Source: an uncultured delta proteobacterium (GTDB lineage Bacteria; Desulfobacterota; DSM-4660; Desulfatiglandales; HGW-15). From it: a stretch of DNA of 64,000 nucleotides. Below, in pieces: positions 28-52,148 of this stretch. The DNA lies in the NCBI GenBank assembly GCA_963740905.1, contig CAVUFY010000011.1, positions 124,926-188,925 on the forward strand, given 5' to 3'. A program made the position numbers and the translations under genes. Below the pieces are notes generated by a model. That model did no database searches. It was not told the DNA's origin and saw nothing but the letters and a program-made list of their open reading frames with translations. How positions within the stretch are numbered: position 1 is the first letter of the stretch; each line of letters begins with the position of its first letter.

Positions 28-597
28 ATGCCTAAAGAGATTCAATGGGAAAAGCAACTGGACAAGGCCCTCTCCAGGGCAAAAACGGAGAATAAACCGA
101 TCCTGATGTTTTTCCACAATCCGGAGTGAATCGGGTGCCAGCAGATGGGAGCAGTTACGTTCCCCGATTCCAAGGTCATCAGCTTCATCACCCAGAATGT
201 CATCCCTTTAATGCTGCCCCACGATCACAAACCTCTCGCCGATCAATTCCAGGTGAAATGGACCCCCACCCTGGTGACACTCGATTCGGACGGGAAGGAA
301 CATCACAGGACCGTGGGTTTCCTTGCCCCTGAGGACTTGATCACTTCACTGATTCTCGGGAGAGCCAAGATTCACTTCGATCATGAGAACTTCGCAGAAG
401 CATTGAAAAGCTTGGACGCCCTGCTCGAAGATTATCCAAAGAGCGGCGCGGCGCCCGAAGCCATCTACCTGCGAGGGGTCTGTCTCTACAAGACGACCCA
501 TCAGGCTAAACCTTTGAAGGATGCTTATGACAAACTGCAGGCTGTATATCCTGAGAGCGAGTGGACTAAGCGCGCTTCTCCCTACAGGCTGCTTTAG
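28..597 (+). CDS. Thioredoxin-fold protein with a TPR/YbgF-like C-terminal half. Candidate selenoprotein with an in-frame UGA (127-129) in a U-x-x-C motif.
   Basis: ATG at 28-30 lies 7 nt after AAGGAGA (14-20). Frame 28-126 is open and reads MPKEIQWEKQLDKALSRAKTENKPILMFFHNPE. TGA follows at 127-129, then IGCQQMGAV... continues in the same frame into track ORF 145..597. FFHNPE-[TGA]-IGC occupies the position of the thioredoxin CxxC, with the first Cys replaced. Confidence 0.6.
128..170 (+). promoter_or_regulatory. Candidate bacterial SECIS hairpin downstream of UGA 127-129
   Basis: Inner stem GGGAGC (147-152) pairs with GUUCCC (159-164): 6 bp including one G-U. The loop is AGUUAC (153-158) and starts 23 nt after the UGA. 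An optional outer helix is GAAUCG (128-133) with CGAUUC (165-170). Folded by eye only. Confidence 0.4.
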
Positions 598-8787: not shown

Positions 8788-10428
<1,641 letters not shown>

Positions 10429-10498: not shown

Positions 10499-10624
10499 TC
10501 ACGATACGTAGAGACGCGGCCCCTTCCTCCTGAGATACTGGCGCAGATCCTGCTCCACACGGTCATTGTTCAGCAGCGTATTGTCCACGTCGAACAGGAA
10601 TACATGTTCATGTTTTTCTGTCAT
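10499..10624 (-). pseudogene. Truncated HAD hydrolase fragment (41 codons), paralogous to 3311..4024
   Basis: MTEKHEHVFLFDVDNTLLNNDRVEQDLRQYL... aligns with VVFLFDVDNTLLDNDRIEKDLRRNL of the full-length gene and then terminates. Its ATG overlaps the zwf TGA (ATGA at 10621-10624). Confidence 0.6.
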
Positions 10625-12007
10625 GGCTTGCTTTCCGGAGGCCGCGGGTTGAGCCACGGCCCGTGTTTGCCGATGAGCTGGTAGGCTTCTTCCGGTCCCC
10701 AGGTTCCCGGCTCGTAAGTATACAAAGGCGTCACGTTGCCCAGGATGCTGTCCACCACCCGCCATTGGGCCTCGACGCTGTCCTCCCGGGCAAAAAGCTC
10801 GGCAGAGCCGCGCATGGCATCGCCCAGCAGACGCTGATACGGTGGCATGTCTTCGGCAGCCTGGCGGACGAAGGTCAACTCCACGTCTTGACCCGCCATC
10901 CGTTCTCCCGGTTTTTTCACCCGCAGTCCCATGGAGAGGGTGATGTCCGGACTGATACGCATCCGCATGTGGCTGGAGAGGACCGGCACGATTTCTCCGA
11001 AGGTCTCACGGGGCGGACGCTTGAACTCAACCATCACCTCCGTGGAGGTCAATGCCAACTTTTTACCGCAGCGTATGAAGATGGGAACTCCGGCCCAACG
11101 CCAGTTGTCGATGGCCACCTTCACGGCCACGAAGGTCTCCACCGTGGAACCGGAGCTGACCCCGGGCACAGAAAGGTAACCGTTATACTGGCCGCGCACC
11201 ACGTCCCCTGGCTTCAGGGGGGTAATGGCTTTGAACAACCGCCCCTTTTCATCCCGGACTGATTCGTGGTCATCACCGGTGTGCGGATCCATGGTCAGGC
11301 TGGCTAGGATCTGCAGCATGTGGTTTTGCAGGACGTCCCGAATGGCGCCGGCCTCGTCGTAGAACTTGCCGCGGTCCTCCACGCCGAAGTCTTCCGCCAT
11401 GGTGATCTGAATACTGCGCACGTAGTGGCGATTCCAGATCGGCTCAAAAATGGGATTGGCAAAGCGAGTGTAGAGGATATTCTGGACCGGCTCTTTGCCC
11501 AGATAGTGGTCGATACGGATAGATGGCCTCTTCCGGGAAGTACTGGTGGAGGATTTTGTTCAACTCCTGCGCGGAGGCCAGATCCCGACCGAAGGGTTTT
11601 TCAAGCACTACCCTGGCGTTGGTGCCGCAGCCCGATTTGGCCAGCCCCTCGGCCACCTCGACGAACATAGTTGGGTGGATGGCCAGGTAATACAACGGCC
11701 TCTCTGCCTTTCCCAATTCCTGGCGCAGTTTTTGATACGTCGCCGGGTCATTATAGTCGCCCTGAACGGCATGCAACAGTCCCGTCAGCTTCTGGAAAGC
11801 CTCCTGATCCAGGGTGCCATGGTGCTCCAGGCTATCCTTGGCGCGCTCCTTGAGCTTGTCAAGGGACCCGGACCGGGACACCCCGATAATGGGCAGATTA
11901 AAGCCTTCTTTCCGGATCAGCCCTTGAAGCGACGGAAATATCTTCTTGTAGGCCAGGTCTCCGGTGGCGCCGAAAAAGACCAGTGTATCCGAAACTGGAG
12001 CCCCCAT
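10621..12007 (-). pseudogene. zwf: Glucose-6-phosphate 1-dehydrogenase, interrupted by a 1-nt frameshift near 11512-11521
   Basis: The N-terminal ORF 11444..12007 carries VFFGATGDLAYKKIFPSL and EKPFGRDL. The C-terminal ORF 10621..11421 carries VRSIQITMAEDFGVEDRGKFYD. The bridging RIDHYLGKEPVQNILYTRFANPIFEPIWNRHY is readable only after removing one C from TATCCGTATC. Confidence 0.85.
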
Positions 12008-13038
12008 CAGCCACCTCCTGCCTTGTCCGGGCTCTTTTCCAGGTGGCCGCCGAATTCATAGCGCATGGCCGACATGAGTTTGTCCGCAAATTCATCTCCG
12101 CCCCGGGAACTGAAGCGGCTGAAGAGCGCCGAGCTGATAACCGGGGCGGGAACACCTTCGTCCACCGCGGCTTGCACCGTCCAGCGTCCTTCGCCCGAAT
12201 CGGATACCCGGCCGGCGAATTTAGACAGGTCCGGGTTGGCTAGTAGCGCGCTGGCCGTCAGATCCAGCAGCCAGGAGCCAATAACGCTGCCGCGCCGCCA
12301 CACTTCGGCCACATCCGGCAGATGGAATTCGTATTGGTACAACTCGGGATGACGCAGCGGCGTGGTCTCCGCATCCACCTCCTGCTGACGCTTCCCGATG
12401 TCGGCATTCTTGATAATATTCAGGCCTTCGGCGAAGGCTGCCATGATGCCGTATTCGATGCCGTTGTGGACCATTTTGACAAAATGCCCGCCGCCGTTGG
12501 GGCCGCAGTGCAGATAGCCGTTCTCCGCGGGGGTCGGCTCCCCTGCGCGGCCAGGGGTGCGCGGGGCCTCGTCCACGCCGGGCGCCAGGGCCTTAAAAAT
12601 GGGGTCCAGGCGCTGGACAGCTTCGACCTCGCCGCCGATCATCATGCAGTAGCCCCGTTCCAGCCCCCAAACCCCGCCGCTGACCCCCACGTCCACATAT
12701 TGGATGCGTTTTTCCTTCAAAGCGGCGGCCCGGCGAATGTCGTCGTGGTAGTAAGAGTTGCCGCCATCTACCACGATGTCACCCGGTTCCAGCAATGAAG
12801 TCAGGTCGTCCAGCACCTTATCCACTGCGGCGGCCGGCACCATCAGCCATACGGCCCGTGGCTTGTCAAGCATTCTGACGAACTCCTTCAGGTCGGTTGT
12901 GCCTTTGGCGCCTTGGTCCACTGCCTCCTTTATGGATTCTTCATGGCGGGCATAAACAACACACGTGTGGCCGGCCTTCATCAAGCGGGTTGCCATGTTG
13001 CCACCCATGCGTCCCGCGCCGATCATTCCCAATTGCAT
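12007..13038 (-). CDS. gnd: 6-phosphogluconate dehydrogenase, decarboxylating (short, about 343-aa form)
   Basis: AAGGAGG precedes ATG 13038. The protein carries MQLGMIGAGRMGGNMA (Rossmann), GGNSYYHDD, and GHFVKMVHNGIEYGIM. Its TGA overlaps the zwf ATG (ATGA at 12005-12009). Confidence 0.85.
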   Translation of the reverse strand: MQLGMIGAGRMGGNMATRLMKAGHTCVVYARHEESIKEAVDQGAKGTTDLKEFVRMLDKPRAVWLMVPAAAVDKVLDDLTSLLEPGDIVVDGGNSYYHDDIRRAAALKEKRIQYVDVGVSGGVWGLERGYCMMIGGEVEAVQRLDPIFKALAPGVDEAPRTPGRAGEPTPAENGYLHCGPNGGGHFVKMVHNGIEYGIMAAFAEGLNIIKNADIGKRQQEVDAETTPLRHPELYQYEFHLPDVAEVWRRGSVIGSWLLDLTASALLANPDLSKFAGRVSDSGEGRWTVQAAVDEGVPAPVISSALFSRFSSRGGDEFADKLMSAMRYEFGGHLEKSPDKAGGG

Positions 13039-13059
13039 GGCAGTCCTCCTTTTGAAAAG

Positions 13060-13290
13060 ATGGGTTCTCCTGCGATCAGCACTGTCCCAGGCCGTCAAAC
13101 AAAGGGACACTTCGCTGCCGGTGCCGATAAGGATCAGATCAGGCTGGCCATCCGGTGGATCGGCCAGCACATAGGCTCCCTTGGCCAAACCGCCGGTCGC
13201 GGTTGATCCATTGAGGGTCGTCAGGGTCGTGGCGCAGGAACCGTTGCCATCAAGAATCACTCTGCTACAACCCGCGCGGCGTAGCATCAT
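13060..13290 (-). pseudogene. tkt: Internal fragment of transketolase, fused in frame upstream of gnd
   Basis: The upstream extension of track ORF 12007..13290 reads ...TGGLAKGAYVLADPPDGQPDLILIGTGSEVSLCLTA. This matches the conserved Tkt block (E. coli TktA, from memory: [28 protein letters not shown]). No N-terminal 500 aa or C-terminal domain is present. Confidence 0.55.
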
Positions 13291-26983: not shown

Positions 26984-27469
26984 ATGACATCTCTTAAACC
27001 CGGAGTTAGAGCTCCAGACTTTTCACTTTCCGCAACCCCCGATCAAAAAGTTTCCCTGTCCGACTTTCGCGGAAGGCCCGTTGTCCTGGTCTTCTATCCG
27101 GCTGATTGGAGCCCCGTTTGCAGTGACCAGTTGGGGCTCTACAACGAGTTGAAGGCCGAATTCTCCGAATTTCAAGCACAAATCATCGGCATTTCAGTGG
27201 ACGGTGTCTGGTGCCATCTCGCCTTCAGCAAGGACCGCAAATTGCGCTTTCCGCTCTTAGCGGATTTTGAGCCTAAAGGCGCAGTGGCCCGACAGTACGG
27301 CGTCTACCGGGAAAAAGAGGGCGAGTCGGAGCGGGCGCTATTTGTCGTCGATACCGAGAGCGTCATTCGTTGGAGTTATGTCTCGCCGGTGGGCGTCAAT
27401 CCGGGAGCCGACGGCATTTTGAAAGCTCTCGAATCGATGACCAAAGGCGAAAAGGCAGAGAGCGTCTGA
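26984..27469 (+). CDS. Peroxiredoxin (AhpC/TSA, BCP/PrxQ-like)
   Basis: APDFSL, VVLVFYPADWSPVCSDQL contains the peroxidatic Cys motif. Confidence 0.9.
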   Translation: MTSLKPGVRAPDFSLSATPDQKVSLSDFRGRPVVLVFYPADWSPVCSDQLGLYNELKAEFSEFQAQIIGISVDGVWCHLAFSKDRKLRFPLLADFEPKGAVARQYGVYREKEGESERALFVVDTESVIRWSYVSPVGVNPGADGILKALESMTKGEKAESV

Positions 27470-27502
27470 CACTGTTTTGATTCCCGAGGCAGGAGGTACG
27501 TT

Positions 27503-28036
27503 ATGGAAGAATCCCCAAAACTCACCCAGCCTGTTTCAGCGCGTGATCATGCGGAAGGACCTGCCGACCCGCCTTTGACTTTAGTAGAATACGGCGATTA
27601 TCAGTGCCCTTACTGCGGAGCCGCCTATCCCGTCATAAAGCGCCTGCAAAAGACCTTGGGGAAGAAACTCCGATTTGTGTTCAGGAACTTCCCCCTAACC
27701 CAGGCGCACCCATATGCCCAGATCGCGGCCGAAGCGGCGGAAGCCGCGGCGCTCCAGGGGAAGTTTTGGGAGATGCACGATCTCCTTTTCGAACGGCAGA
27801 CCTCGCTCAATCCGGAGATCATCCCTACGTGGGCAAACGGGATCGGATTGAATGTCGAACAATTCGGGAACGATATCAAAGAAGGCGTTGTCGAGAAGCG
27901 TATTAAGGAAGACCGCCAGAGTGGAATCCGCAGCGGAGTTAATGGCACGCCGACCTTTTTTATCAACGGGATACGCTACGATGGCTCTCATGATTATAAT
28001 TCGCTCCTGGCCGCTCTGCAATCGGCGGCATTGTAA
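27503..28036 (+). CDS. DsbA-family thioredoxin-fold oxidoreductase
   Basis: YGDYQCPYCG is the CxxC site. It also carries VNGTPTFFING. Confidence 0.85.
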   Translation: MEESPKLTQPVSARDHAEGPADPPLTLVEYGDYQCPYCGAAYPVIKRLQKTLGKKLRFVFRNFPLTQAHPYAQIAAEAAEAAALQGKFWEMHDLLFERQTSLNPEIIPTWANGIGLNVEQFGNDIKEGVVEKRIKEDRQSGIRSGVNGTPTFFINGIRYDGSHDYNSLLAALQSAAL

Positions 28037-28187
28037 TCCTGCTCCGTTTGAATACGGTTGTGGCACATCGGGAATCCGACACCGCGCAGCTAAAGTCATC
28101 AACACGAACTCTCTTTGCCAGGATAGCGATCCTCGTCAACTTTCTGCAAAGCGTTCTTGTGGCGTATAAAATAAAGGGGGCTTGAAC

Positions 28188-28622
28188 ATGACGGAAAAAG
28201 GTTTGACCCTGATACAGCGAGTGGCCATCTGCTTCACTGCGGGGGTTATAGGCGGACTGGCGGTAGTCCTTTTCAGCCAGGTCCTGTTTGGGTTGGGGCT
28301 TAGCGCGACCTTCGGGATAAAGGCTCCGGTATCCTTGAACCCGCCGGGTATATACAGGCCGCTCTTCTGGGCCGGGCTGTGGGGTATCCCGTTCGGGTTC
28401 CTTATAAAGGCCGTCTGGAACCGGCTCTACCTCTTCGGTCTCCTATACTTCCTCGCGCCGGTTCTGGCGTTGTTCTTATTCTTCCTACCGATGAGCGGCG
28501 CAGGGTATTTTGGGCTTCAGCGGGGCGGGCCGATGCTCACAGTCTACCTGCTGCTCGTAAATCTGCCGTACGGAATAATCACGGCTTTGGCCGCAAGGGC
28601 GATAACAGGGAAGAAGCCGTAA
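28188..28622 (+). CDS. Small integral membrane protein, unknown function (about 4 TM helices)
   Basis: The hydrophobic segments are AICFTAGVIGGLAVVLF, LFWAGLWGIPFGFLI, LFGLLYFLAPVLALFLFFL, LLLVNLPYGIITALA. AAGGGGG lies upstream of ATG 28188. Confidence 0.5.
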   Translation: MTEKGLTLIQRVAICFTAGVIGGLAVVLFSQVLFGLGLSATFGIKAPVSLNPPGIYRPLFWAGLWGIPFGFLIKAVWNRLYLFGLLYFLAPVLALFLFFLPMSGAGYFGLQRGGPMLTVYLLLVNLPYGIITALAARAITGKKP

Positions 28623-28701
28623 GCATCGTGGAGAAAGAGGAAAGCCTGAGCTTAGCGGTCACACGGTGTCCAAGTGCCGGCAGGCTGAGAATGGAGCTCG
28701 G

Positions 28702-29421
28702 ATGAGCGAAGAAAAGAACCCAGGGGAGGGTAATAAGCCCCAGATGGCAGCGAGCCGGAAAGGCGCAGCTATCAAGGCACTCTTTCTGGTCGCATTCGTC
28801 ATCGTGGCGATTTACATTATCCGCTTCACGTCGGCAAGGGAGTTTTTTACCGAAAAGGCCTTGAACCAGTTTCTCGATCGGGCTGGACTCTGGGCGCCTC
28901 TCGTCTTCATGCTGGTCTACACCGCAGGCGTATGTCTGTTTGTCCCCGGCACCCTGCTCACCGCCCTGGGAGCCGCTTTGTTTGGCCCTTACTGGGGATT
29001 CGTGTGTGTATGGATGGGAGCCATGGCTGGTGCCACTGCCGCTTTCTGGATCGGACGGACGCTGGGGAGAGATTTTGCCGCTTCCCTCATAGGGGAAAAA
29101 CTGAAGAAGTATGATGAGGCGATCGAGAGGAACGGATTCGCCACGGTGCTTTACTTGCGGCTGGTCTATTTCCCTTTCACCGCCATGAACTTTGGGATGG
29201 GGCTGACCAAGGTCCGGTTCCGGGATTATTTTTGGGGCACGGGTTTGGGCATTTTGGTGGGGACTTTTATTCTTACTTTTTTTATCGGCACGATTAAAGA
29301 AGTTTGGGTCGCAGGAGATTGGAGTCAGTTGATTTCTTCCAAAGTTTTTTTCTCGGTGGGTCTGTTTATTTTTTCCCTCTTCATTCCCAAAATTATTAAA
29401 AAGATAAAGAAAGAAAGTTGA
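28702..29421 (+). CDS. TVP38/TMEM64 (DedA-related, SNARE-associated) membrane protein
   Basis: VPGTLLTALGAALFGPYWGFVCVWMGAMAGATAAFWIGRTLGR...NGFATVLYLRLVYFPFTAMNFGMGLT is the family core. Confidence 0.8.
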   Translation: MSEEKNPGEGNKPQMAASRKGAAIKALFLVAFVIVAIYIIRFTSAREFFTEKALNQFLDRAGLWAPLVFMLVYTAGVCLFVPGTLLTALGAALFGPYWGFVCVWMGAMAGATAAFWIGRTLGRDFAASLIGEKLKKYDEAIERNGFATVLYLRLVYFPFTAMNFGMGLTKVRFRDYFWGTGLGILVGTFILTFFIGTIKEVWVAGDWSQLISSKVFFSVGLFIFSLFIPKIIKKIKKES

Positions 29422-29430
29422 TTTCTTGGC

Positions 29431-29722
29431 AACGTTCAGAAGAGTTTGCATGGGCTTACAAGTAGACCTCATGGGACCGGCCCAACATGGGACAGGGTTG
29501 GTACCTTTTCCGGAGTGACTGGCGGGAGGGCGCCGTATTTTCACGGTTTATCTGTGGGGGGAAACCCCTGGCCCCGAGCGCACGCGAGGGGAACAGCGGG
29601 AGGGGGCAAAACTCCCCCGCAGATAAGCCGTAGAAAAGACCCGCCCGGGAGCCCTTGGAACGAAGGAAAAGGTGGCAGCCACGTCTCTAAGCTTTGGTCC
29701 CATGCAACCACTATTGAACCTT
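29431..29722. repeat. Repeat family R1, most complete copy (about 290 nt, long imperfect hairpin with terminal inverted repeats)
   Basis: The left end is AACGTTCAGAAGAGTTTGCATGGG and the right end is CCCATGCAACCACTATTGAACC. The inner arms are TTTTCACGGTTTATCTGTGGGGGGA and TCCCCCGCAGATAAGCCGTAGAAAA. The central mini-hairpin is GGGGG-CAAAACT-CCCCC. Confidence 0.75.
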
Positions 29723-29744
29723 ACTAATTTTTTAGGAGGGGGTC

Positions 29745-31193
29745 ATGCTGGATTATGATTTTGATATCGGAATCTTGGGAGGAGGGTCGGGAGGTTTGAC
29801 GGTGGCGGCGGGAGCCGCTCAGCTGGGGGCCAAAACCCTGCTCATGGAGAAGGAAAAGCTGGGAGGGGACTGTCTGTATTTCGGCTGCGTCCCTAGCAAA
29901 ACCCTGATCCAAACCGCCCATGTCTACCATCTTATGAAAAATGCCAGGAAGTTCGGGCTTCCCGCGGTGGAAGTCAAGCCGATCGACTTCCGTGAGGTGG
30001 CCGCAAGAATTCAGTCGGTCATCCAAATCATTGAGAAGTATGACTCCGAGGAAAGGTTCTGTAAACTTGGAGTCAAAGTTGAATTCGGGAAGCCGGCCTT
30101 TGTGGATGAGCATTCCATCCGGCTGGAAGGGAAAACTTTTTCCGCCAAGAACTGGGTCATTGCCACTGGCTCTTCCCCCTCCGTTCCACCGGTAACCGGT
30201 TTGGACCAAACTCCTCACATCACCAACAAGGAAATGTATTCCTTCGAAAGATTACCGAAGTCCATGGTGATCCTTGGAGCCGGTCCGGTTGCCACGGAAA
30301 TGGCCCAGACTTTCAGTCGTCTGGGGACCGAGGTCAAGGTGATACAGCGCAGCGGCCAAATTCTGAGCAATGAAGACAAGGATATGGCTGATCAGGTCAT
30401 GAAGGTCTTGCAGACTGAAGGGGTCGAGTTCCATCTCAACACCTCGGTGGTGAGCACGAAGGATTTGGGGGACCGGAGAGAAATCGTGATTAAAAAGGGA
30501 GACGGACAAACTATTGCTCTTCATGCGGAAGTCATCCTGGTAGCCATGGGAAGAGAGGCTAACCTGAAAGGATTGAACCTGGAAGGGATCGGCATACCCT
30601 ATGATGACAAAGGCTTGAAGTTGGACCCGAGATTGAGAACGGTTCACAAACATATTTATGGAGCCGGCGATGTAACCGGAGCCTACCAGTTTACCCATGC
30701 GGCCGGATATGAGGGTTCCATCGTAGTCACTAATGCCATTTTCCATCTCCCCCGAAAGGTGAATTATACCTTCCTCCCCTGGTGTACCTTTACCGACCCG
30801 GAACTGGCAAGCATCGGGATGAACGAGAAAAGAGCCAAGGCCGAGGGCGTCGAATATGACGTATGGGTAGAAGAGTTTAAGGGCAACGACCGGAGCCTCG
30901 CCGAGGGGGAAGAGGTTGGAAAAATCAAAATGATCCTGGATAAGAAAGGAAATCCCATCGGCGTTCAGATTCTCGGCCCCCGGGCCGGGGACCTGGTGAG
31001 CGAGTGGGTTGCAGCCTTGAATGGGAACGTCAAACCCAGGACTCTGGCCGCCGCTGTACATCCCTATCCGACCCTGGGAGAGATCAATAAGAAAGTGGCC
31101 GGGACCTATCTCTCCAGTAAACTCTTCTCGGAACGAATCAGGAAAGGTCTTCATTTCTTCTTCGACCTGAAGGGTAGAGCTTGCGGAGGGTGA
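29745..31193 (+). CDS. Class I FAD-dependent pyridine nucleotide-disulfide oxidoreductase (mercuric reductase/dihydrolipoamide dehydrogenase-like)
   Basis: GILGGGSGG is the FAD site and GGDCLYFGCVPSK is the redox-active CxxxxC. The second Rossmann motif is ILGAGPVATE. The C-terminal dimerisation-domain block is HPYPTLGE. It lacks the MerA NmerA domain and the CC tail. Confidence 0.85.
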   Translation: MLDYDFDIGILGGGSGGLTVAAGAAQLGAKTLLMEKEKLGGDCLYFGCVPSKTLIQTAHVYHLMKNARKFGLPAVEVKPIDFREVAARIQSVIQIIEKYDSEERFCKLGVKVEFGKPAFVDEHSIRLEGKTFSAKNWVIATGSSPSVPPVTGLDQTPHITNKEMYSFERLPKSMVILGAGPVATEMAQTFSRLGTEVKVIQRSGQILSNEDKDMADQVMKVLQTEGVEFHLNTSVVSTKDLGDRREIVIKKGDGQTIALHAEVILVAMGREANLKGLNLEGIGIPYDDKGLKLDPRLRTVHKHIYGAGDVTGAYQFTHAAGYEGSIVVTNAIFHLPRKVNYTFLPWCTFTDPELASIGMNEKRAKAEGVEYDVWVEEFKGNDRSLAEGEEVGKIKMILDKKGNPIGVQILGPRAGDLVSEWVAALNGNVKPRTLAAAVHPYPTLGEINKKVAGTYLSSKLFSERIRKGLHFFFDLKGRACGG

Positions 31194-46899: not shown

Positions 46900-48312
46900 A
46901 TGAACGATCTGTTGATCATCGGTGGAAGCGATGCAGGAATAAGCGCGGCCCTCCGTGCAAAGGAAGTGGATCCCTCGATGTGCGTGACCGTAATCGTGGC
47001 AGACGAATATCCAAACTACAGTATCTGCGGGCTCCCGTTTCTTCTGAGCGGCGAGGTCGAAGATTGGCGAACCCTTGCTCACCGGAGCATCGAGGAGATA
47101 GAAAGGGCTTCGGTTCGGGTTTTGCTCAACCACAAAGCCGAGGCGATTGATCCGCATGCGAAAATCATCGGGATCACAAACAGCGAGGGGCGCGATGCGG
47201 TATTGAAATACGACAGGCTTATCATCGCAACAGGGGCCGTCTCCGGCCGGCCTTCCATAGAGGGGCTGGACCTTCCAGGCGTCTTTTGTCTCCGCTGGAT
47301 GGGGGATGCTTTTTCTATCCGGGAATATGTCGCAAGATATTCTCCTGATGAGGCGATCATTCTTGGAGCAGGGTACATCGGCATGGAAATGGCCGACGCT
47401 CTGACCAGGAGAGGCATTTCGGTGACCATGTTGATTCGTTCAGGACGCGTGTTGAAAACTGTGGATAAAGAAATGGGAGAGATCATCCGGACCGAGTTGA
47501 TTAAAAAAGGCGTAAATCTGGTCGATCGGATTGATGTCACCTCCATAGAGAAACGAGGAGAGAAGCTCGTTGTGAAGAATTCTCAGGATATTCCCGTCAA
47601 AGGCGACCTTGTCCTGATCGCTGCCGGGGCAAGGCCGGAGACTGCCTTGGCTCGGAGGTCAGGGGTTTCGACCGGAATCCACGGCGCCATCAAAGTGAAC
47701 CACGCGATGGAAACCAATGTCATGGACATATACTCAGCAGGCGACTGCGCTGAGACCTGGCATCGCCTTCTTAGGAAATACACCTATCTTCCCCTGGGAA
47801 CCACAGCGCACAAACAGGGATGCGCGGCCGGGGAGAATGCGGCTGGAGGAGATGCAGAATTTGCAGGCTCTCTGAGCACCCAGGTGGTCAAGATCTTTGA
47901 TCTTGTGGTGGCGCGAACAGGATTGCTTGAGCAGGAGGCTCGGGACGCAGGCTTCGATCCTTTGAGCGTCCATCATCAGACATGGGACCATACGCCCTAC
48001 TATCCCGGAGCCACTCTTCTCCATCTCCGCATTACAGGAGATCGAAAGACGGGCAGACTCCTTGGGGGCCAGATCATCGGGCAGTACAAGGCGGAGGTAT
48101 CCAAACGTATCGATATTTTCGCCGCAGCCTTGTTCAACGAGATGACCATCAATGCGTTGAACCACCTCGATCTGAGCTATACTCCTCCCATGAGCAGCCC
48201 TTGGGACCCGGTTCAGCAAGCCGCTCAGGCATGGACATGCAAAAGAGAAGCAAATGGACAGCGTTCTCCGATAGGGACTTTCGCAAATCTAACCTTCTCG
48301 GATGCGCAGTGA
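46900..48312 (+). CDS. CoA-disulfide reductase/NADH oxidase-family FAD-dependent oxidoreductase
   Basis: IIGGSDAG is the FAD site. The single redox Cys lies in PNYSICGLPF. The second Rossmann motif is ILGAGYIGMEMA, and GDC is also present. Confidence 0.85.
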   Translation: MNDLLIIGGSDAGISAALRAKEVDPSMCVTVIVADEYPNYSICGLPFLLSGEVEDWRTLAHRSIEEIERASVRVLLNHKAEAIDPHAKIIGITNSEGRDAVLKYDRLIIATGAVSGRPSIEGLDLPGVFCLRWMGDAFSIREYVARYSPDEAIILGAGYIGMEMADALTRRGISVTMLIRSGRVLKTVDKEMGEIIRTELIKKGVNLVDRIDVTSIEKRGEKLVVKNSQDIPVKGDLVLIAAGARPETALARRSGVSTGIHGAIKVNHAMETNVMDIYSAGDCAETWHRLLRKYTYLPLGTTAHKQGCAAGENAAGGDAEFAGSLSTQVVKIFDLVVARTGLLEQEARDAGFDPLSVHHQTWDHTPYYPGATLLHLRITGDRKTGRLLGGQIIGQYKAEVSKRIDIFAAALFNEMTINALNHLDLSYTPPMSSPWDPVQQAAQAWTCKREANGQRSPIGTFANLTFSDAQ

Positions 48313-48329
48313 AGTGGCGCTCGGAGGGA

Positions 48330-48905
48330 TTAGCCCTTTTTTAGAATCACGGCCTTGCTAAGAAATACTTTCGGCCTGTCAACAGCCATCAAGCCGGCAT
48401 TGCGGGCTATACTGATGGTCTGTTCAAACGCAGCCTTGGAGACATGGAATGGTGGCTCTACAATGAGAACCCGCCCGGTCGGGTTGAGTATTGATTCTAT
48501 GTCTCTAAAAAATTCATTCTGGTCCGGGACTTCGTGAACCATGTAAAAAGCGAGGACAAAATCTACATTTTGGGACACGCCTATTTTGTTCTTTTGGCAC
48601 CTATGCAATGTGATACGTTCCTCAAGGTCGGATCCTCTAATTTTGTTTCTTAATCTCTGAAGCATTCCGTCTTGAAGATCAGCAGCGATGACCCGCCCCG
48701 ATTTGCCGACCATCCTTGCGATGTCGACGGTGAAGTAGCCGGAACCACATCCGAAATCCAGGACCGTCATCCCTTCTTTAATGTATGGGCCGAGTATTTT
48801 TCGAGGGTTTTGCAGCCATCCCCGGAACTTGTTGTCAAGACTGCCTGCCATTTCAACCGGGCACACACGATTTCTTCCATCACCCATCTTCTTCTCTCCT
48901 TTCAA
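48330..48905 (-). CDS. Class I SAM-dependent methyltransferase
   Basis: VLDFGCGSGYFT is motif I, followed by VIAADLQ. An alternative start is at 48887. Confidence 0.8.
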   Translation of the reverse strand: MKGEKKMGDGRNRVCPVEMAGSLDNKFRGWLQNPRKILGPYIKEGMTVLDFGCGSGYFTVDIARMVGKSGRVIAADLQDGMLQRLRNKIRGSDLEERITLHRCQKNKIGVSQNVDFVLAFYMVHEVPDQNEFFRDIESILNPTGRVLIVEPPFHVSKAAFEQTISIARNAGLMAVDRPKVFLSKAVILKKG

Positions 48906-49103
48906 AGCCGAACAGCCCGCTTAACCGGCTGAGCAAAGCTGGGCCAGTTCACCTCACTGTTCGCCATCCTACTCAGATAAACCTACAACCTCCTCGAATT
49001 AGAACTCCTGCAAATATCGAGCATGTTCCCGTTGAGTCGGTCGATGTGTGACTGATCCTGTATGCGGGAATTGTATCATATTAGCTGTTTCTAGTAGCCG
49101 TGA

Positions 49104-49292
49104 GGATCATGATTCTCTTTCTTGAGTGACTGGCGGAAAGGCGCCGTCTTTTCACGGTTTATCTATGGGGGAAACCCCTGGCTCCGAGCGAAGGCGAGGA
49201 GAACAGCGGGAGGGGGCAAAACTCCCCCGTAGATAAACCGTAGAAAAGACCAACCTGCGAGCCTCGGAACGGGAGAAAGGGAATCATGATCC
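49104..49292. repeat. Repeat family R1, compact near-perfect hairpin copy
   Basis: GGATCATGATTCTCTTTC...GTCTTTTCACGGTTTATCTATGGGGGAAAC...GGGGGCAAAACTCCCCCGTAGATAAACCGTAGAAAAGAC...GAGAAAGGGAATCATGATCC. Confidence 0.8.
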
Positions 49293-49679
49293 TTACCATA
49301 ATTACATAGAGCTAAAATGATGCCGGGAATTGAGGTTCTGTCAGGCGGTGGTTTGATAACCCGCTAGCAGGTCCTTATGGGTAGGCAAATGACCACACAG
49401 AATCACATCAACATTTTCTGAATAAAAAGGCAAAGAGGTTGTTTTGTCAAGCCAGATCCAGGTAAAGCTTCTATGAGACTTTGTCTAAACTCGTGGGATT
49501 AAGATTCCAGGATGTTTCCTGACAAGTCTTGATGGATGGTGGGAAACGTTGAAGGGTTTTCCATGCATGGAGGAAAGTCAAGATTAGGATGAAGTGGCCC
49601 AAGGATTCATAATACAAAGATTTCTGCTTCGCAGGATATTTCCTTCACTCTCCTTTCACGAGCCCCAAAACGCCTTTTC

Positions 49680-50102
49680 CTAAGCCTTTGAACCTGTTCC
49701 GGTGCCGTATAGTTTTAGCTGTGTACTCACTCCAAGCCGGGTAGCAGACGCCGGGAAATTCTCCAACGATTTTAGAATCCTCATCAACTGCTCGTTTCGA
49801 AACGGCTTCAGCATCGCAAAGTCAAACATTTCCTCTTGCACTTCATCTTCGTAGGCGGTAATCGCGGCAATCGGCGTCTCTGCCTTCTCCGAGTTTCTTA
49901 TGTGCTTGGCAACTTCATTGCCGTCCTTTCTTGGCATACGTATATCTGTGATGACCAAATCGAAACTGCCGGCACTGGTGAAGAGCTCGATGCCTTTTTC
50001 TCCGTCCTCAGCAACTTCCACATGGTGCCCAAGATTGCGCAATAGCATGGCAATAACGGTTCGAACGTTCCTGTCGTCTTCGATCAGTAGGATTCGCTGC
50101 AT
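49680..50102 (-). CDS. Stand-alone response-regulator receiver (CheY-like) protein
   Basis: ILLIEDD, and DLVITDIRMP carries the phospho-acceptor Asp. The conserved T/K region is at ...PIAAITAY. There is no output domain and no kinase nearby. Confidence 0.85.
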   Translation of the reverse strand: MQRILLIEDDRNVRTVIAMLLRNLGHHVEVAEDGEKGIELFTSAGSFDLVITDIRMPRKDGNEVAKHIRNSEKAETPIAAITAYEDEVQEEMFDFAMLKPFRNEQLMRILKSLENFPASATRLGVSTQLKLYGTGTGSKA

Positions 50103-50429
50103 GGAAGTTTCCGCCTCGTCTAAAGGAATCGGACGTCAGATGTTTGAGATCACAAAACCAGATCCAACGACTATGCTTAATATAAATTAACAGCTTTTAT
50201 ATCTCTTATATTCATTTATGTCAATAATTAATTTAAATTGTATGTATATTTAGTGATGAGTCTTAAACGATAGACTCTAGCCGCCACGTCTGCTACTAAA
50301 ACGGGCCATCGTCTTTGGAGGGTGCCAAGTGCAGGTCATCACGAAGAGTTGCCGGCAATGTTGCTTTCCTGCTTCTGCAGCAATCGCAGTCAAGACCTCT
50401 GGGTGCCTACGCCTTCTGGGTTGCCCTTC

Positions 50430-50633
50430 TCATTGTTGACCGACAGCTACAACAATAAGAGATTCCCGATCTGATTCATTTCTTCTGTCAACGAGCCCCC
50501 TTCTTTCCGGAATATGTGCATCATAGCAAAAGCGTCTACGTTCAATGCCTGAGCGCCTCTCTCCCCCGACGCTACGAATAGAAACGCAATTGCCAAATCT
50601 GACTCTTTCATCACGATGGCTTCCGGTAAGCAT
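50430..50633 (-). CDS. Small Arg-rich protein with an internal ERRxG-x-(E/D)RR repeat
   Basis: GAGGAG lies 9 nt before the ATG. The sequence ...GGERRSGIERRRFCYDAHIPERRGLVDRRN... shows two ERR..G..RR units. A competing 83-aa ORF in another frame (50447..50698) cannot be excluded. Confidence 0.3.
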   Translation of the reverse strand: MLTGSHRDERVRFGNCVSIRSVGGERRSGIERRRFCYDAHIPERRGLVDRRNESDRESLIVVAVGQQ

Positions 50634-50811
50634 CTCTTGTCACTCCTCTCATTCGCCCAAATGCGATTGATATAACCACTCCTTATAAGCGAATGCAAAG
50701 CGGATGCCAGAGTCTTTTAACCGGCTCAACGATTTGGTTTCACTCACTTTTGTCCCAATTAACCCAAGCGCTGAATGTAGATTCTGAAGGATTTTTCCTC
50801 CAGACCGTTTT

Positions 50812-51309
50812 TCATTCTGTTTGGTAGCACTCCAGGATTTCTCCAAAGTATAGGGTGTGATAGTCCTTTGCAGGATAGAGGCGCTCGCACTCTCTGTCCA
50901 GGCATTTGGGGTCCATGGGGGTCTTGAGAAGGATCTTGCATTCAAACTGGATAGCTGGTGTCCTGATAATGGGCGAAAGGACTTTCTTAGCGCTCGCGAG
51001 CTCCAGATTGCACGCCTTGTACTTGTCCACGTCTTTTCCGGATTTTGTGCCGCAGAACATCAGCGCATCGCGCATGTTCTTCGTGGGCACCGTGACCGTG
51101 AAGTCGGACGCTTTTTCCATGAAGCGATAGGTGTGCCGCGAATTCCGCACAAGCACCATCAAAACCGGTTTCTGCCACGCATAACCGATGAGGGACCAGC
51201 CAATGGTCATGGTGTTTGTGCCTTCTCCTGTCTTGACCGTCAAAAAGGCCCCTTCCCTGACTTGAGCGATAACCTTTTCAGCCACAGCCATGTAATCCAA
51301 CTCTTTCAT
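50812..51309 (-). CDS. Flavin reductase-like (FMN-binding split-barrel) protein
   Basis: GAFLTVKTGEGTNTMTIGW and VLVRNSRHTYRFMEKASDFTV fit the flavin reductase-like domain pattern. Confidence 0.75.
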   Translation of the reverse strand: MKELDYMAVAEKVIAQVREGAFLTVKTGEGTNTMTIGWSLIGYAWQKPVLMVLVRNSRHTYRFMEKASDFTVTVPTKNMRDALMFCGTKSGKDVDKYKACNLELASAKKVLSPIIRTPAIQFECKILLKTPMDPKCLDRECERLYPAKDYHTLYFGEILECYQTE

Positions 51310-51355
51310 ATCAACCTCCGATCCTAAGATGTGATGGGCCGCCTGCCCTTATTCA

Positions 51356-51535
51356 TCAGTTTCCGTCCGGCTCGTTATCTGCGGGCTGTTCAATAATGAC
51401 CGCACGATACTTTGTCGATTGTTCGCGCAAGTACTTGATCTCAAGATACTCTTTGGAGGCAAAGCACTTGTGTATACCCATTTCGTTTTCGAATCGGATC
51501 AAGACAAGCTTATCAGGAAGGCCGTTTAGGTCATT
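51356..51535 (-). pseudogene. C-terminal remnant of a DUF1330-family protein
   Basis: DKLVLIRFENEMGIHKCFASKEYLEIKYLREQSTKYRAVIIEQ matches the DUF1330 C-terminal pattern from memory (vVIEFPS.e.a..wy.SpEY....lR......vIIEG). The N-terminal half is missing or overlapped by the peroxiredoxin 3' end. Confidence 0.4.
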
Positions 51536-52148
51536 TGTTAAGAGCTTCAAGTGCCTTACGGAGTTCCATGAGCGGGGGTCTCTCGTTGATGTCATAGATG
51601 TCCATGAACCGGATGACGCCCTGTTTATCGATGACAAAAATGACACGCTCACTAAAGCCTTCCGACCTTAACACCCCGTACTTCTGTGCGACCTGGCCGT
51701 GAGGATAAAAGTCGGACAAGACCGGAAACCACAGTTTATCCTTGTTATTGGCAATCGCCTTGGTCCAGGCATAAAGGGTGGGGATATTATCAACCGTAAT
51801 GCCCAGCAGGACGGCATCATGGTCATCGAAAATGTCCTTGGCCAGATCATAGACGGGCCACTGGTAGGTGCAAACCGGAGTCCATGCGGCCGGCACAAAG
51901 GAAATCACGACGTTCTTCTTTCCCAGGTATTGACTCAGAGTCACCTTGCCACCGCCCAAGGCTGGGAGCGTAAAGTCAGGGGCTTTATCACCCACTTTCA
52001 GAGTCGTTTCACTGTTCCTCGGTTTAAGCTTCCCCAGCGGGAAAATATTGTTGGGAGTCTCGCCTTCACCACGGGCGTCGCCGTGCCAGAAAAGGATGAC
52101 CAAAGCCGCACAACATACCATAGCTGACATTAGATTTTTTCTTTGCAT
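51531..52148 (-). CDS. Secreted peroxiredoxin (AhpC/TSA family) with signal peptide
   Basis: The signal-like N-terminus is MSAMVCCAALVILFW. APDFTLP and VVISFVPAAWTPVCTYQ carry the peroxidatic Cys. Confidence 0.9.
   Translation of the reverse strand: MQRKNLMSAMVCCAALVILFWHGDARGEGETPNNIFPLGKLKPRNSETTLKVGDKAPDFTLPALGGGKVTLSQYLGKKNVVISFVPAAWTPVCTYQWPVYDLAKDIFDDHDAVLLGITVDNIPTLYAWTKAIANNKDKLWFPVLSDFYPHGQVAQKYGVLRSEGFSERVIFVIDKQGVIRFMDIYDINERPPLMELRKALEALNK

Follow-up and report, generated by a model that had tools for sequence, protein, structure and literature searches.

A thioredoxin-fold gene with a conserved in-frame UGA and a SECIS-type hairpin is a probable member of a previously predicted selenoprotein family

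The window is the whole 64-kb stretch of DNA that was analyzed. Close to its beginning, the forward strand carries a gene whose full coding sequence spans positions 28 to 597 and is composed of 189 codons, from an ATG at 28-30 to a TAG stop at 595-597. A Shine-Dalgarno-like AAGGAGA, read directly from the sequence, is found at 14-20 and leaves a 7-nt spacer to the ATG. The frame is open except for a single in-frame TGA at 127-129, codon 34, which is the predicted selenocysteine (Sec) codon and is referred to here as U34. The conceptual translation is MPKEIQWEKQLDKALSRAKTENKPILMFFHNPE-[TGA]-IGCQQMGAVTFPD..., where the residues flanking the TGA are ...KPILMFFHNPE-[TGA]-IGCQQM..., and the predicted redox motif is the UxxC sequence U34-I35-G36-C37 at 127-138. 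A preliminary description of this DNA had proposed the ribosome-binding site, the ATG at 28 and the single TGA, and all three are present. In the mechanical list of open reading frames (ORFs), the gene starts at the ATG at 145. This ORF of the standard gene callers (145-597) encodes 150 amino acids and contains neither U34 nor C37.

The 33 codons upstream of the TGA evolve like coding sequence. Among homologous loci that carry TGA at this codon (TGA-forms), a Shine-Dalgarno-like tetramer lies 4-18 nt 5' of the equivalent start in 135 of 144. A start codon is present at codon -33 in 123 of 134 distinct loci, and the upstream 33 codons are without an in-frame stop in 133 of the 134; the other two frames of this segment have stops in 88 and 105 loci. 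Codon-position entropy is 0.80/0.65/1.44 in the upstream 33 codons and 0.79/0.52/1.47 downstream, so the period-3 variation of the upstream segment equals that of the downstream segment.

The protein is composed of a thioredoxin-fold domain of the Thioredoxin_2/Thioredoxin_7/DsbH type (37-342, residues ~4-105), assigned by Pfam and Foldseek, and a C-terminal TPR-like helical module (346-594, residues ~107-189), assigned by Pfam and the helices of a structural model. For the Pfam scan of the conceptual protein, U was replaced by C. Three thioredoxin-like domains begin at residues 4-18, upstream of codon 34: PF13098 Thioredoxin_2 (residues 18-105, 49.6 bits against a cut-off of 27), PF13899 Thioredoxin_7 (residues 6-69, 37.6 bits) and PF03190 Thioredox_DsbH (residues 4-78, 33.2 bits), the last two also above their gathering thresholds. 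TPR_6 matches residues 111-139 (26.6 bits against 26.3); TPR_16 and YfiO match below cut-off, and the TPR-type matches span residues 111-183. In a sequence alignment against the PDB, position 34 aligns with the first Cys of the WCxxC motif in 2kuc and in a thioredoxin. The claim of a thioredoxin fold with the TGA at the first Cys of CxxC is upheld by this alignment and by the Pfam domains that span the UGA.

An AlphaFold2 model was made of a full-length relative with Cys at the UGA column (P0057, 59% identical), using a 29-sequence alignment, and has a pLDDT of 91.4 and a pTM of 0.88. Residue 34 of the model is located between a strand (25-30) and a helix (35-44), and further helices are found at 101-118, 122-135, 141-157, 161-173 and 178-188. 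In a Foldseek search of the PDB, the N-terminal half matched 3f9u, DsbH (2ju5), DsbD-gamma (1uc7) and thioredoxin domains. The model predicts a thioredoxin fold in which the redox motif follows strand beta-1 and sits at the start of helix alpha-1. In alignment A1, G36 and C37 are nearly invariant and W78-T79-P80 (259-267) is invariant. The latter lies immediately before strand 81-85 in the model and, from what is generally known of thioredoxin folds, is presumably the cis-proline loop that faces the active site. No signal peptide is evident in the window protein, and it is thus presumably cytoplasmic.

Relatives of the gene are numerous, and the codon at position 34 was followed through them. 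A search of 5.8 billion proteins returned 874 relatives, most of which are 149-155 amino acids long. All of the close relatives (67-93% identity) are annotated with lengths of 150-155 amino acids, the same truncation as the window gene. Relatives of full length (53-62% identity) carry either Cys or Trp at the UGA column. In a scan that took one genome for each GTDB species, 285 relatives were found, and the best 80 loci were examined. In these best 80 of 285, tblastn matched residues 1-189, the column is TGA in 80 of 80, and the N-terminus upstream of it is conserved. The carriers are Desulfobacterota (Desulfatiglandaceae, Syntrophales, Desulfomonilaceae and others), Nitrospirota/Thermodesulfovibrionales and Ca. 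Brocadia, and the complete genome AP021856.1 is among them. A few metagenome-assembled genomes (MAGs) of this set have other taxonomic labels. At 82-85% identity, MAGs labelled 'Deltaproteobacteria' or Desulfatiglandaceae are the nearest genome relatives of the window copy. Cys-forms were also used to seed a scan of metagenomes, which contributed 80 further loci. With all sources combined, 144 of 170 loci have TGA and 26 have a Cys codon (TGC or TGT), and the 26 Cys-codon loci represent 20 distinct sequences in the hairpin region. The TGA-forms greatly outnumber the Cys-forms in the sample examined. The Cys-forms are single contiguous ORFs, and 30 Cys-form proteins have CIGC or CPGC at the column. 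Homologues with TGA and with Cys alike align over residues 1-33, as the preliminary description had anticipated for homologues of a selenoprotein. Homologues that start at the equivalent of Met145, which it had named as a possible refutation, are seen solely through gene-caller truncation.

One explanation of these data is that the UGA is a genuine stop, where a 33-codon upstream ORF is followed by a real 150-residue gene that starts at ATG 145. This is the default call in the named database records of TGA-forms that were examined. An ATG is also almost universally present at the Met40 position, because M40 is an invariant residue. The 150-residue product, however, would be a thioredoxin fold that has lost strand beta-1 and both residues of CxxC, and the upstream 33 codons have coding-type conservation, their own Shine-Dalgarno sequence and their own start. 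Genuine termination is also at odds with the Cys-forms, which are contiguous single ORFs, and would leave a SECIS-type hairpin specific to the TGA-forms (described below) without explanation. This explanation is highly improbable.

The TGA could also have arisen from TGT or TGC, either as a sequencing error or in a pseudogene. The window does contain a frameshifted G6PD gene at 10621-12007, and errors or pseudogenes thus exist on the contig. Against this, the same TGA recurs in 144 independent loci, which represent many assemblies and phyla, and an identical copy of the gene is found on a separate Logan contig. A single contaminating sequence is excluded because the orthologues are spread over 53-93% identity. 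There is next to no chance that an error or a decayed gene accounts for the TGA.

A third explanation is an alternative genetic code in which UGA encodes Trp (code 4) or Gly (code 25). In favour of such a code, ten database proteins have W at the column. In the two of the ten that were checked (P0056 and P0049), the codon in the DNA is TGA and translation under table 11 does not yield the database protein, which is consistent with the 'W' being an artefact of code-4 gene models on short contigs. True homologues have Cys at the column, not Trp or Gly. Of the 34 window ORFs that reach 200 amino acids or more, 22 terminate in TGA, from which the code is taken to be the standard one; no window gene needs read-through, and the larger ORFs that were scanned annotate normally with Pfam under table 11. 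An alternative code is extremely unlikely. The Pfam annotation of the larger window ORFs revealed no further convincing selenoprotein gene. A naive scan for pairs of ORFs bridged by TGA produced 81 candidates, mostly off-frame noise. The pair examined in detail, a peroxiredoxin ORF (26984-27469) that ends in TGA and is in frame with a DsbA-like ORF (27503-28036), was rejected as a read-through candidate; the DsbA-like ORF has its own ribosome-binding site, its own ATG and an intact CPYC.

The RNA downstream of the UGA contains a candidate bacterial SECIS hairpin at 147-164. It has the sequence GGGAGC-AGUUAC-GUUCCC, with the 5' arm at 147-152, the loop AGUUAC at 153-158 and the 3' arm at 159-164, and is composed of 6 bp that include one G-U pair. 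From the UGA, it is 17 nt to the hairpin and 23 nt to the start of its loop. The bacterial SECIS consensus model of Zhang and Gladyshev (2005), as summarised in PMC13188914 (Fig. 2), calls for a loop of 3-9 nt, a stem of 4-16 bp, a spacing of 16-37 nt and a minimum free energy of -7.5 kcal/mol or lower, with a G within the first two loop positions that is usually followed by G or U. The window hairpin satisfies all of these published criteria, with a 6-nt loop, a 6-bp stem, the loop G-U, a 23-nt spacing and an energy of -8.2 kcal/mol. The preliminary description had given this stem, loop and spacing, and all are confirmed; the 23 nt that it regarded as suitable fall within the 16-37 nt of the model. 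Compared to the consensus, the hairpin here is minimal, as no lower stem is conserved across the family. Nor does the RNAalifold consensus of 78 sequences contain a conserved bulged U of the kind present in the E. coli fdhF SECIS. A search of the whole window with Rfam at gathering thresholds produced no match.

Folded by itself, the 120-190 segment is not statistically distinctive (z = -0.58 against shuffles). Because a single local fold is no better than that of shuffled sequence, the case for the hairpin must be comparative. Alignment A2 is composed of 78 distinct sequences and covers the UGA with 6 nt of upstream and 63 nt of downstream sequence. RNAalifold found one consensus structure in this alignment, the same 6-bp hairpin at 147-164. 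Standard pairs are formed in 98.5% of cells, compared to 21-64% if the 3' partner columns are shifted by 1-3 positions, and one stem pair is broken in 7 of the 78 sequences. Two pairs are changed on both sides, from A-U to G-C in 11 sequences and from U-A to A-U in 6; these 17 cells were reached by 0 of 500 shuffles. The covarying changes replace amino acids, where Asp(GAU)...Tyr(UAU) is exchanged with Gly(GGA)...Phe(UUC) or Gly(GGU)...Tyr(UAC). The SECIS apparently constrains the protein to residue pairs that covary, Asp/Tyr versus Gly/Phe at positions 41 and 45.

The Cys-forms serve as a comparison. Of the 6 stem pairs, 5.92 are formed in the 119 distinct TGA-forms versus 3.85 in the 20 distinct Cys-forms (Mann-Whitney p = 5e-22). 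The Thr/Ser codon that closes the loop is NCG in 118 of 119 TGA-forms versus 2 of 20 Cys-forms (Fisher p = 2e-19), and the energy of the imposed hairpin is -6.5 kcal/mol in the TGA-forms versus +1.0 in the Cys-forms. All 119 distinct TGA-forms have G-U at loop positions 2-3. Across the family, the 18-nt hairpin taken by itself has a mean energy of -6.5 kcal/mol and only 22% of sequences reach -7.5, whereas the segment from the UGA to +45 reaches -7.5 kcal/mol in 99% of the family. A conserved stem-loop in the UGA-containing orthologues had been named as a check on the selenoprotein reading, and one is present there with compensatory changes. By these sequence comparisons, the hairpin is judged to be under selection, kept in the TGA-forms and decayed in most of the Cys-forms.

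The conserved hairpin also bears on a fourth explanation, SECIS-independent read-through, in which a near-cognate tRNA inserts Cys or Trp and the hairpin is a generic stimulator. Downstream hairpins can stimulate read-through in other systems, and no Sec machinery was seen in the window or in the flanks of the related loci. Searches for selA, selB, selD and tRNA-Sec found none of them in the 64-kb window or in related loci totalling 1.43 Mb, too small a sample to be informative for genomes of several Mb. Specifically, ARAGORN found no tRNA-Sec in the window or any of the loci. In the window and related loci, selA, selB and selD were not found by motif scan or by tblastn with E. coli queries, and SelA and SelB were not found by tblastn with the S. 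aciditrophicus queries of the 2006 supplement (PMC1794560). Apparent Sec-machinery matches were the TypA/BipA GTPase (L049, L051, L052 and L058) and PurM (L033). The lack of Sec genes is expected because each genome was sampled only in small part. Against this explanation, the spacing, the loop size and the invariant loop G-U match a SelB-type bacterial SECIS specifically, and the pairing of Sec and Cys at a catalytic Cys site is a hallmark of selenoproteins. The family is also present in Geobacter and Syntrophus. The selenoproteomes listed for G. metallireducens and S. aciditrophicus both include SelD, and SelA and SelB are printed for S. aciditrophicus (PMC1794560). SECIS-independent read-through is very unlikely.

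Conservation across ~140 loci from several phyla extends to the UGA, the hairpin and the reading frame that flanks the UGA on either side. From this evidence, we conclude that 28-597 very probably (a probability of roughly 0.93) encodes one 189-residue cytoplasmic thiol/selenol-disulfide oxidoreductase in which the UGA at 127-129 is decoded as selenocysteine.

Such a family has been predicted before. Kryukov and Gladyshev reportedly predicted a 'thiol:disulfide interchange protein' selenoprotein family in 2004. Members of this family were described in Geobacter metallireducens, G. uraniumreducens and Syntrophus aciditrophicus, with a supplementary sequence that reads ...LLDFFNPGUIGCKQMDAVTYP...KWTPT...EHHRTVGF...SEWVKRAQPYSLL (Zhang et al. 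2006, PMC1794560). The preliminary description had been made without knowledge of this published family. A 2026 review lists the family as PF13098, UxxC, WP_011366075.1 (Table 1), and grades it as 'predicted with high confidence', not experimentally verified (PMC13188914). Cluster look-ups and a second homology search did not find a named Geobacter isolate record that links to WP_011366075.1. The window protein is 57% identical to the G. uraniumreducens selenoprotein over 185 amino acids with no gaps (E = 2e-85) and 47% identical to that of G. metallireducens over the full length, also ungapped (E = 4e-67). For this comparison, both sequences were given C in place of U, and the published U aligns with residue 34. 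The proteins are alike in length (186-190 amino acids), in U-I-G-C at the same position, in PF13098 as the best Pfam match, and in the blocks KWTPT, EHHRTVGF and SEW.KRA.PY.LL. Because the identity is full-length and the U is aligned at residue 34, the window gene is placed as an orthologue of the described selenoprotein family. As judged from sequence, it belongs to a family already predicted, and the result is an annotation fix rather than a discovery. The window copy is from a different clade than the published members; it has E before U where the published family has G, and its stem is GGGAGC/GUUCCC (Gly-Phe) instead of the common GGAUGC/GUAUCC (Asp-Tyr). Three Sec members of the family were known in 2006, whereas hundreds of loci are found here, including those of Nitrospirota and Ca. 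Brocadia.

Several other thioredoxin-fold families resemble the protein in part. Domains of the DsbD-gamma, DsbH and Thioredoxin_7 type (3f9u, 2ju5, 1uc7 and 2kuc) have the same fold with the active site in the same place. Foldseek aligned 100-145 columns to the DsbD-gamma/DsbH-type domains with E-values of 2e-6 to 1e-4 and an rmsd of 2.5-3.5 A, and sequence E-values to structures of these types are 1e-5 to 1e-4. The DsbD-gamma/DsbH-type proteins are Cys proteins and mostly periplasmic or membrane-tethered. The window protein, in contrast, has no signal peptide, has a predicted Sec in place of the first Cys and is fused to a TPR-like module. The DsbD model (NF001419) scores 35.7 against a cut-off of 330 and the DsbH model (NF043050) 32.4 against 190, and the relation to both is at the domain level.

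E. coli YbbN/CnoX and its Salmonella homologue (3qou and 3qdn) have an N-terminal thioredoxin fold followed by TPR helices, as is the case here, and were the only full-length PDB matches (Foldseek, E ~4e-6, ~200 aligned columns). CnoX is ~100 residues longer than the window protein. It is also not known to have a catalytic CxxC motif, with SxxC in its place. The superposition is poor (TMq 0.42, rmsd 11-12 A; 11.7), and the PDB search found no match to 3qou or 3qdn at the sequence level. Membership in CnoX/YbbN was rejected on these grounds, and the likeness is an architectural analogy.

The NCBIfam families TsoB, VPGUxxT, Trx7/PDZ, HUIPC and SaoT also have a thioredoxin fold in which Sec is part of the redox motif or adjacent to it. 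TsoB (NF045694), the best NCBIfam match, scores 45.8 against a cut-off of 805, VPGUxxT (NF041383/NF041382) 33.5 against 275, and Trx7/PDZ (NF041199) 17.1 against 300, and all three were rejected; HUIPC (NF047660) and SaoT (NF040730) gave no match at E <= 0.01. The motif in this case, (E/G)UIGC, differs from VPGU and from those of the other curated families, and no NCBIfam model reaches its cut-off for the window protein. A full-text literature search for a selenoprotein that combines thioredoxin and TPR parts returned nothing relevant.

Following the established bacterial mechanism, SelB with Sec-tRNA(Sec) and GTP would bind the apical loop and stem, including the invariant loop G-U, as the ribosome reaches the UGA, and delivery of Sec would compete with RF2. 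In the finished protein, U34 would cap the N-terminus of helix alpha-1, where CxxC proteins have their nucleophilic Cys. By analogy to the fold, U34 may attack substrate disulfides or oxidised thiols, and C37 may then resolve the intermediate via a selenenylsulfide bond. The disulfide oxidoreductase activity is putative and follows from the fold and motif. The TPR-like C-terminal module is a putative binding site and probably binds a protein or peptide partner. A more specific role is tentative and rather unlikely, namely that the protein works in the cytoplasm as a CnoX-like redox chaperone, depends on Sec, and shields or repairs the thiols of proteins in strict anaerobes, among them Nitrospirota and the anammox Brocadia. 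Such a role, the excess of TGA-forms and the residue pairs apparently imposed by the SECIS are not described in the literature searched.

The finding confirms a twenty-year-old prediction and opens no new question, and its practical value is in annotation and curation. It widens the known range of the family from three Deltaproteobacteria to Nitrospirota and Ca. Brocadia. The 119 distinct UGA-forms, the 20 Cys-form controls and the covariation-supported SECIS hairpin are a potential seed for an NCBIfam model. As we understand it, PGAP cannot correct the call because no NCBIfam model reaches its cut-off. The lack of an NCBIfam match fits the truncated state of the NCBI records. Standard gene callers had been expected to truncate the gene and remove its active site, and this is seen in the ORF list of the window and in the named records of TGA-forms that were examined (NCBI MAG submissions and JGI), which are ~150 amino acids long and labelled 'hypothetical' or 'tetratricopeptide repeat'. 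In other records, a code-4 gene model has wrongly translated the UGA to Trp. A 150-residue product identical to that of the window is on record, on a contig of 0.2-1 Mb, and on locus L086 a separate 33-residue ORF was called for the orphaned N-terminus.

The stem of the conserved bacterial SECIS hairpin (window 148-150 paired with 160-162) forces amino-acid covariation on codons 41 and 45 of the selenoprotein gene. The commonest pair is Asp41/Tyr45, encoded by GAU/UAU (78 sequences). Two variants occur: Gly/Phe, encoded by GGA/UUC in 14 sequences that include the window's gene, and Gly/Tyr, encoded by GGU/UAC in 11. Cys-forms mostly carry Asp/Phe at these codons (GAC/UUY), a combination that is non-complementary.

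In the window, the minimum free energy fold of this region has an extra 8-bp lower stem that pairs 128-135 with 163-170 (GAAUCGGG/CCCGAUUC). This stem surrounds the UGA and is in competition with two of the base pairs that make up the conserved hairpin. Judged by eye, a few close relatives, such as loci L007 and L009, seem able to form a comparable lower stem. The consensus structure of the family contains no such 8-bp stem.

The hairpin persists in some homologues that encode Cys. In locus L003 (1204-1245), where the Sec codon is replaced by TGT, the hairpin is still perfect (6/6 pairs) and the ACG codon is kept; in the Cys-form at L087, 5/6 pairs form. These intact or near-intact hairpins suggest recent Sec-to-Cys conversions. 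In addition, the Cys-form protein P0068 shares its 90%-identity cluster with proteins of 149 aa and 134 aa that resemble truncated Sec-forms. Sec/Cys switching in the Geobacteraceae may therefore be very recent. In one full-length homologue, P0225, the Sec/Cys column is occupied by Ser (LGSTGCNQM), which could be a true SxxC variant or one more translation artefact.

Several family members are misrepresented in public databases. Full-length proteins with Trp at the Sec position include P0056, P0049, and eight others. For both proteins examined, the Trp codon is TGA in the DNA (P0056, L001 289-291; P0049, L002 360-362), evidently because a code-4 gene model was picked for short contigs. Trp at this position is therefore a systematic artefact that masks selenoproteins as Trp proteins. 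A different gene call is found at L086, an independent contig with an identical gene, where the orphaned N-terminus is called as a separate 33-aa ORF (1835-1936) beside the 150-aa ORF. Upstream on this contig lies a gene for a zinc-type alcohol dehydrogenase.

The Sec-form is also present in anammox bacteria of Ca. Brocadia (L026, L027, L033, L041, L042, L056, L072, and L073), including the complete genome AP021856.1. The Ca. Brocadia hairpin has the stem variant GGAUAC/GUAUCC and the loop AGUUUC. Single metagenome-assembled genomes labelled Clostridia, Gammaproteobacteria, and Dehalococcoidia carry the Sec-form as well (L031, L078, and L081); these cases may reflect horizontal transfer or errors in binning.

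Besides the selenoprotein gene (28-597), the window has abundant thiol-redox genes (26984-31190 and 46900-52148), none of which is evidently linked to it in an operon. An AhpC/TSA peroxiredoxin (26984-27469, + strand) ends at TGA 27467-27469, in frame with the ORF of a DsbA-like protein (27503-28036, + strand). An apparent second Sec read-through across 26984-28036 was ruled out because the DsbA-like gene is preceded by a GGCAGGAGG ribosome-binding site of its own, starts at a separate ATG, and encodes an intact CPYC motif. The remaining thiol-redox genes encode two pyridine-nucleotide-disulfide oxidoreductases (29745-31190 and 46900-48309) and a second peroxiredoxin (51531-52148, - strand).

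The glucose-6-phosphate dehydrogenase gene of the window (10621-12007, - strand) is broken into G6PD_N (11447-12007, - strand) and G6PD_C (10624-11421, - strand), two ORFs that differ in frame. The split is a frameshift, reflecting either a pseudogene or an assembly/long-read error. Together with PGI (8790-10370) and 6PGD (12010-13290), the gene forms a pentose-phosphate cluster.
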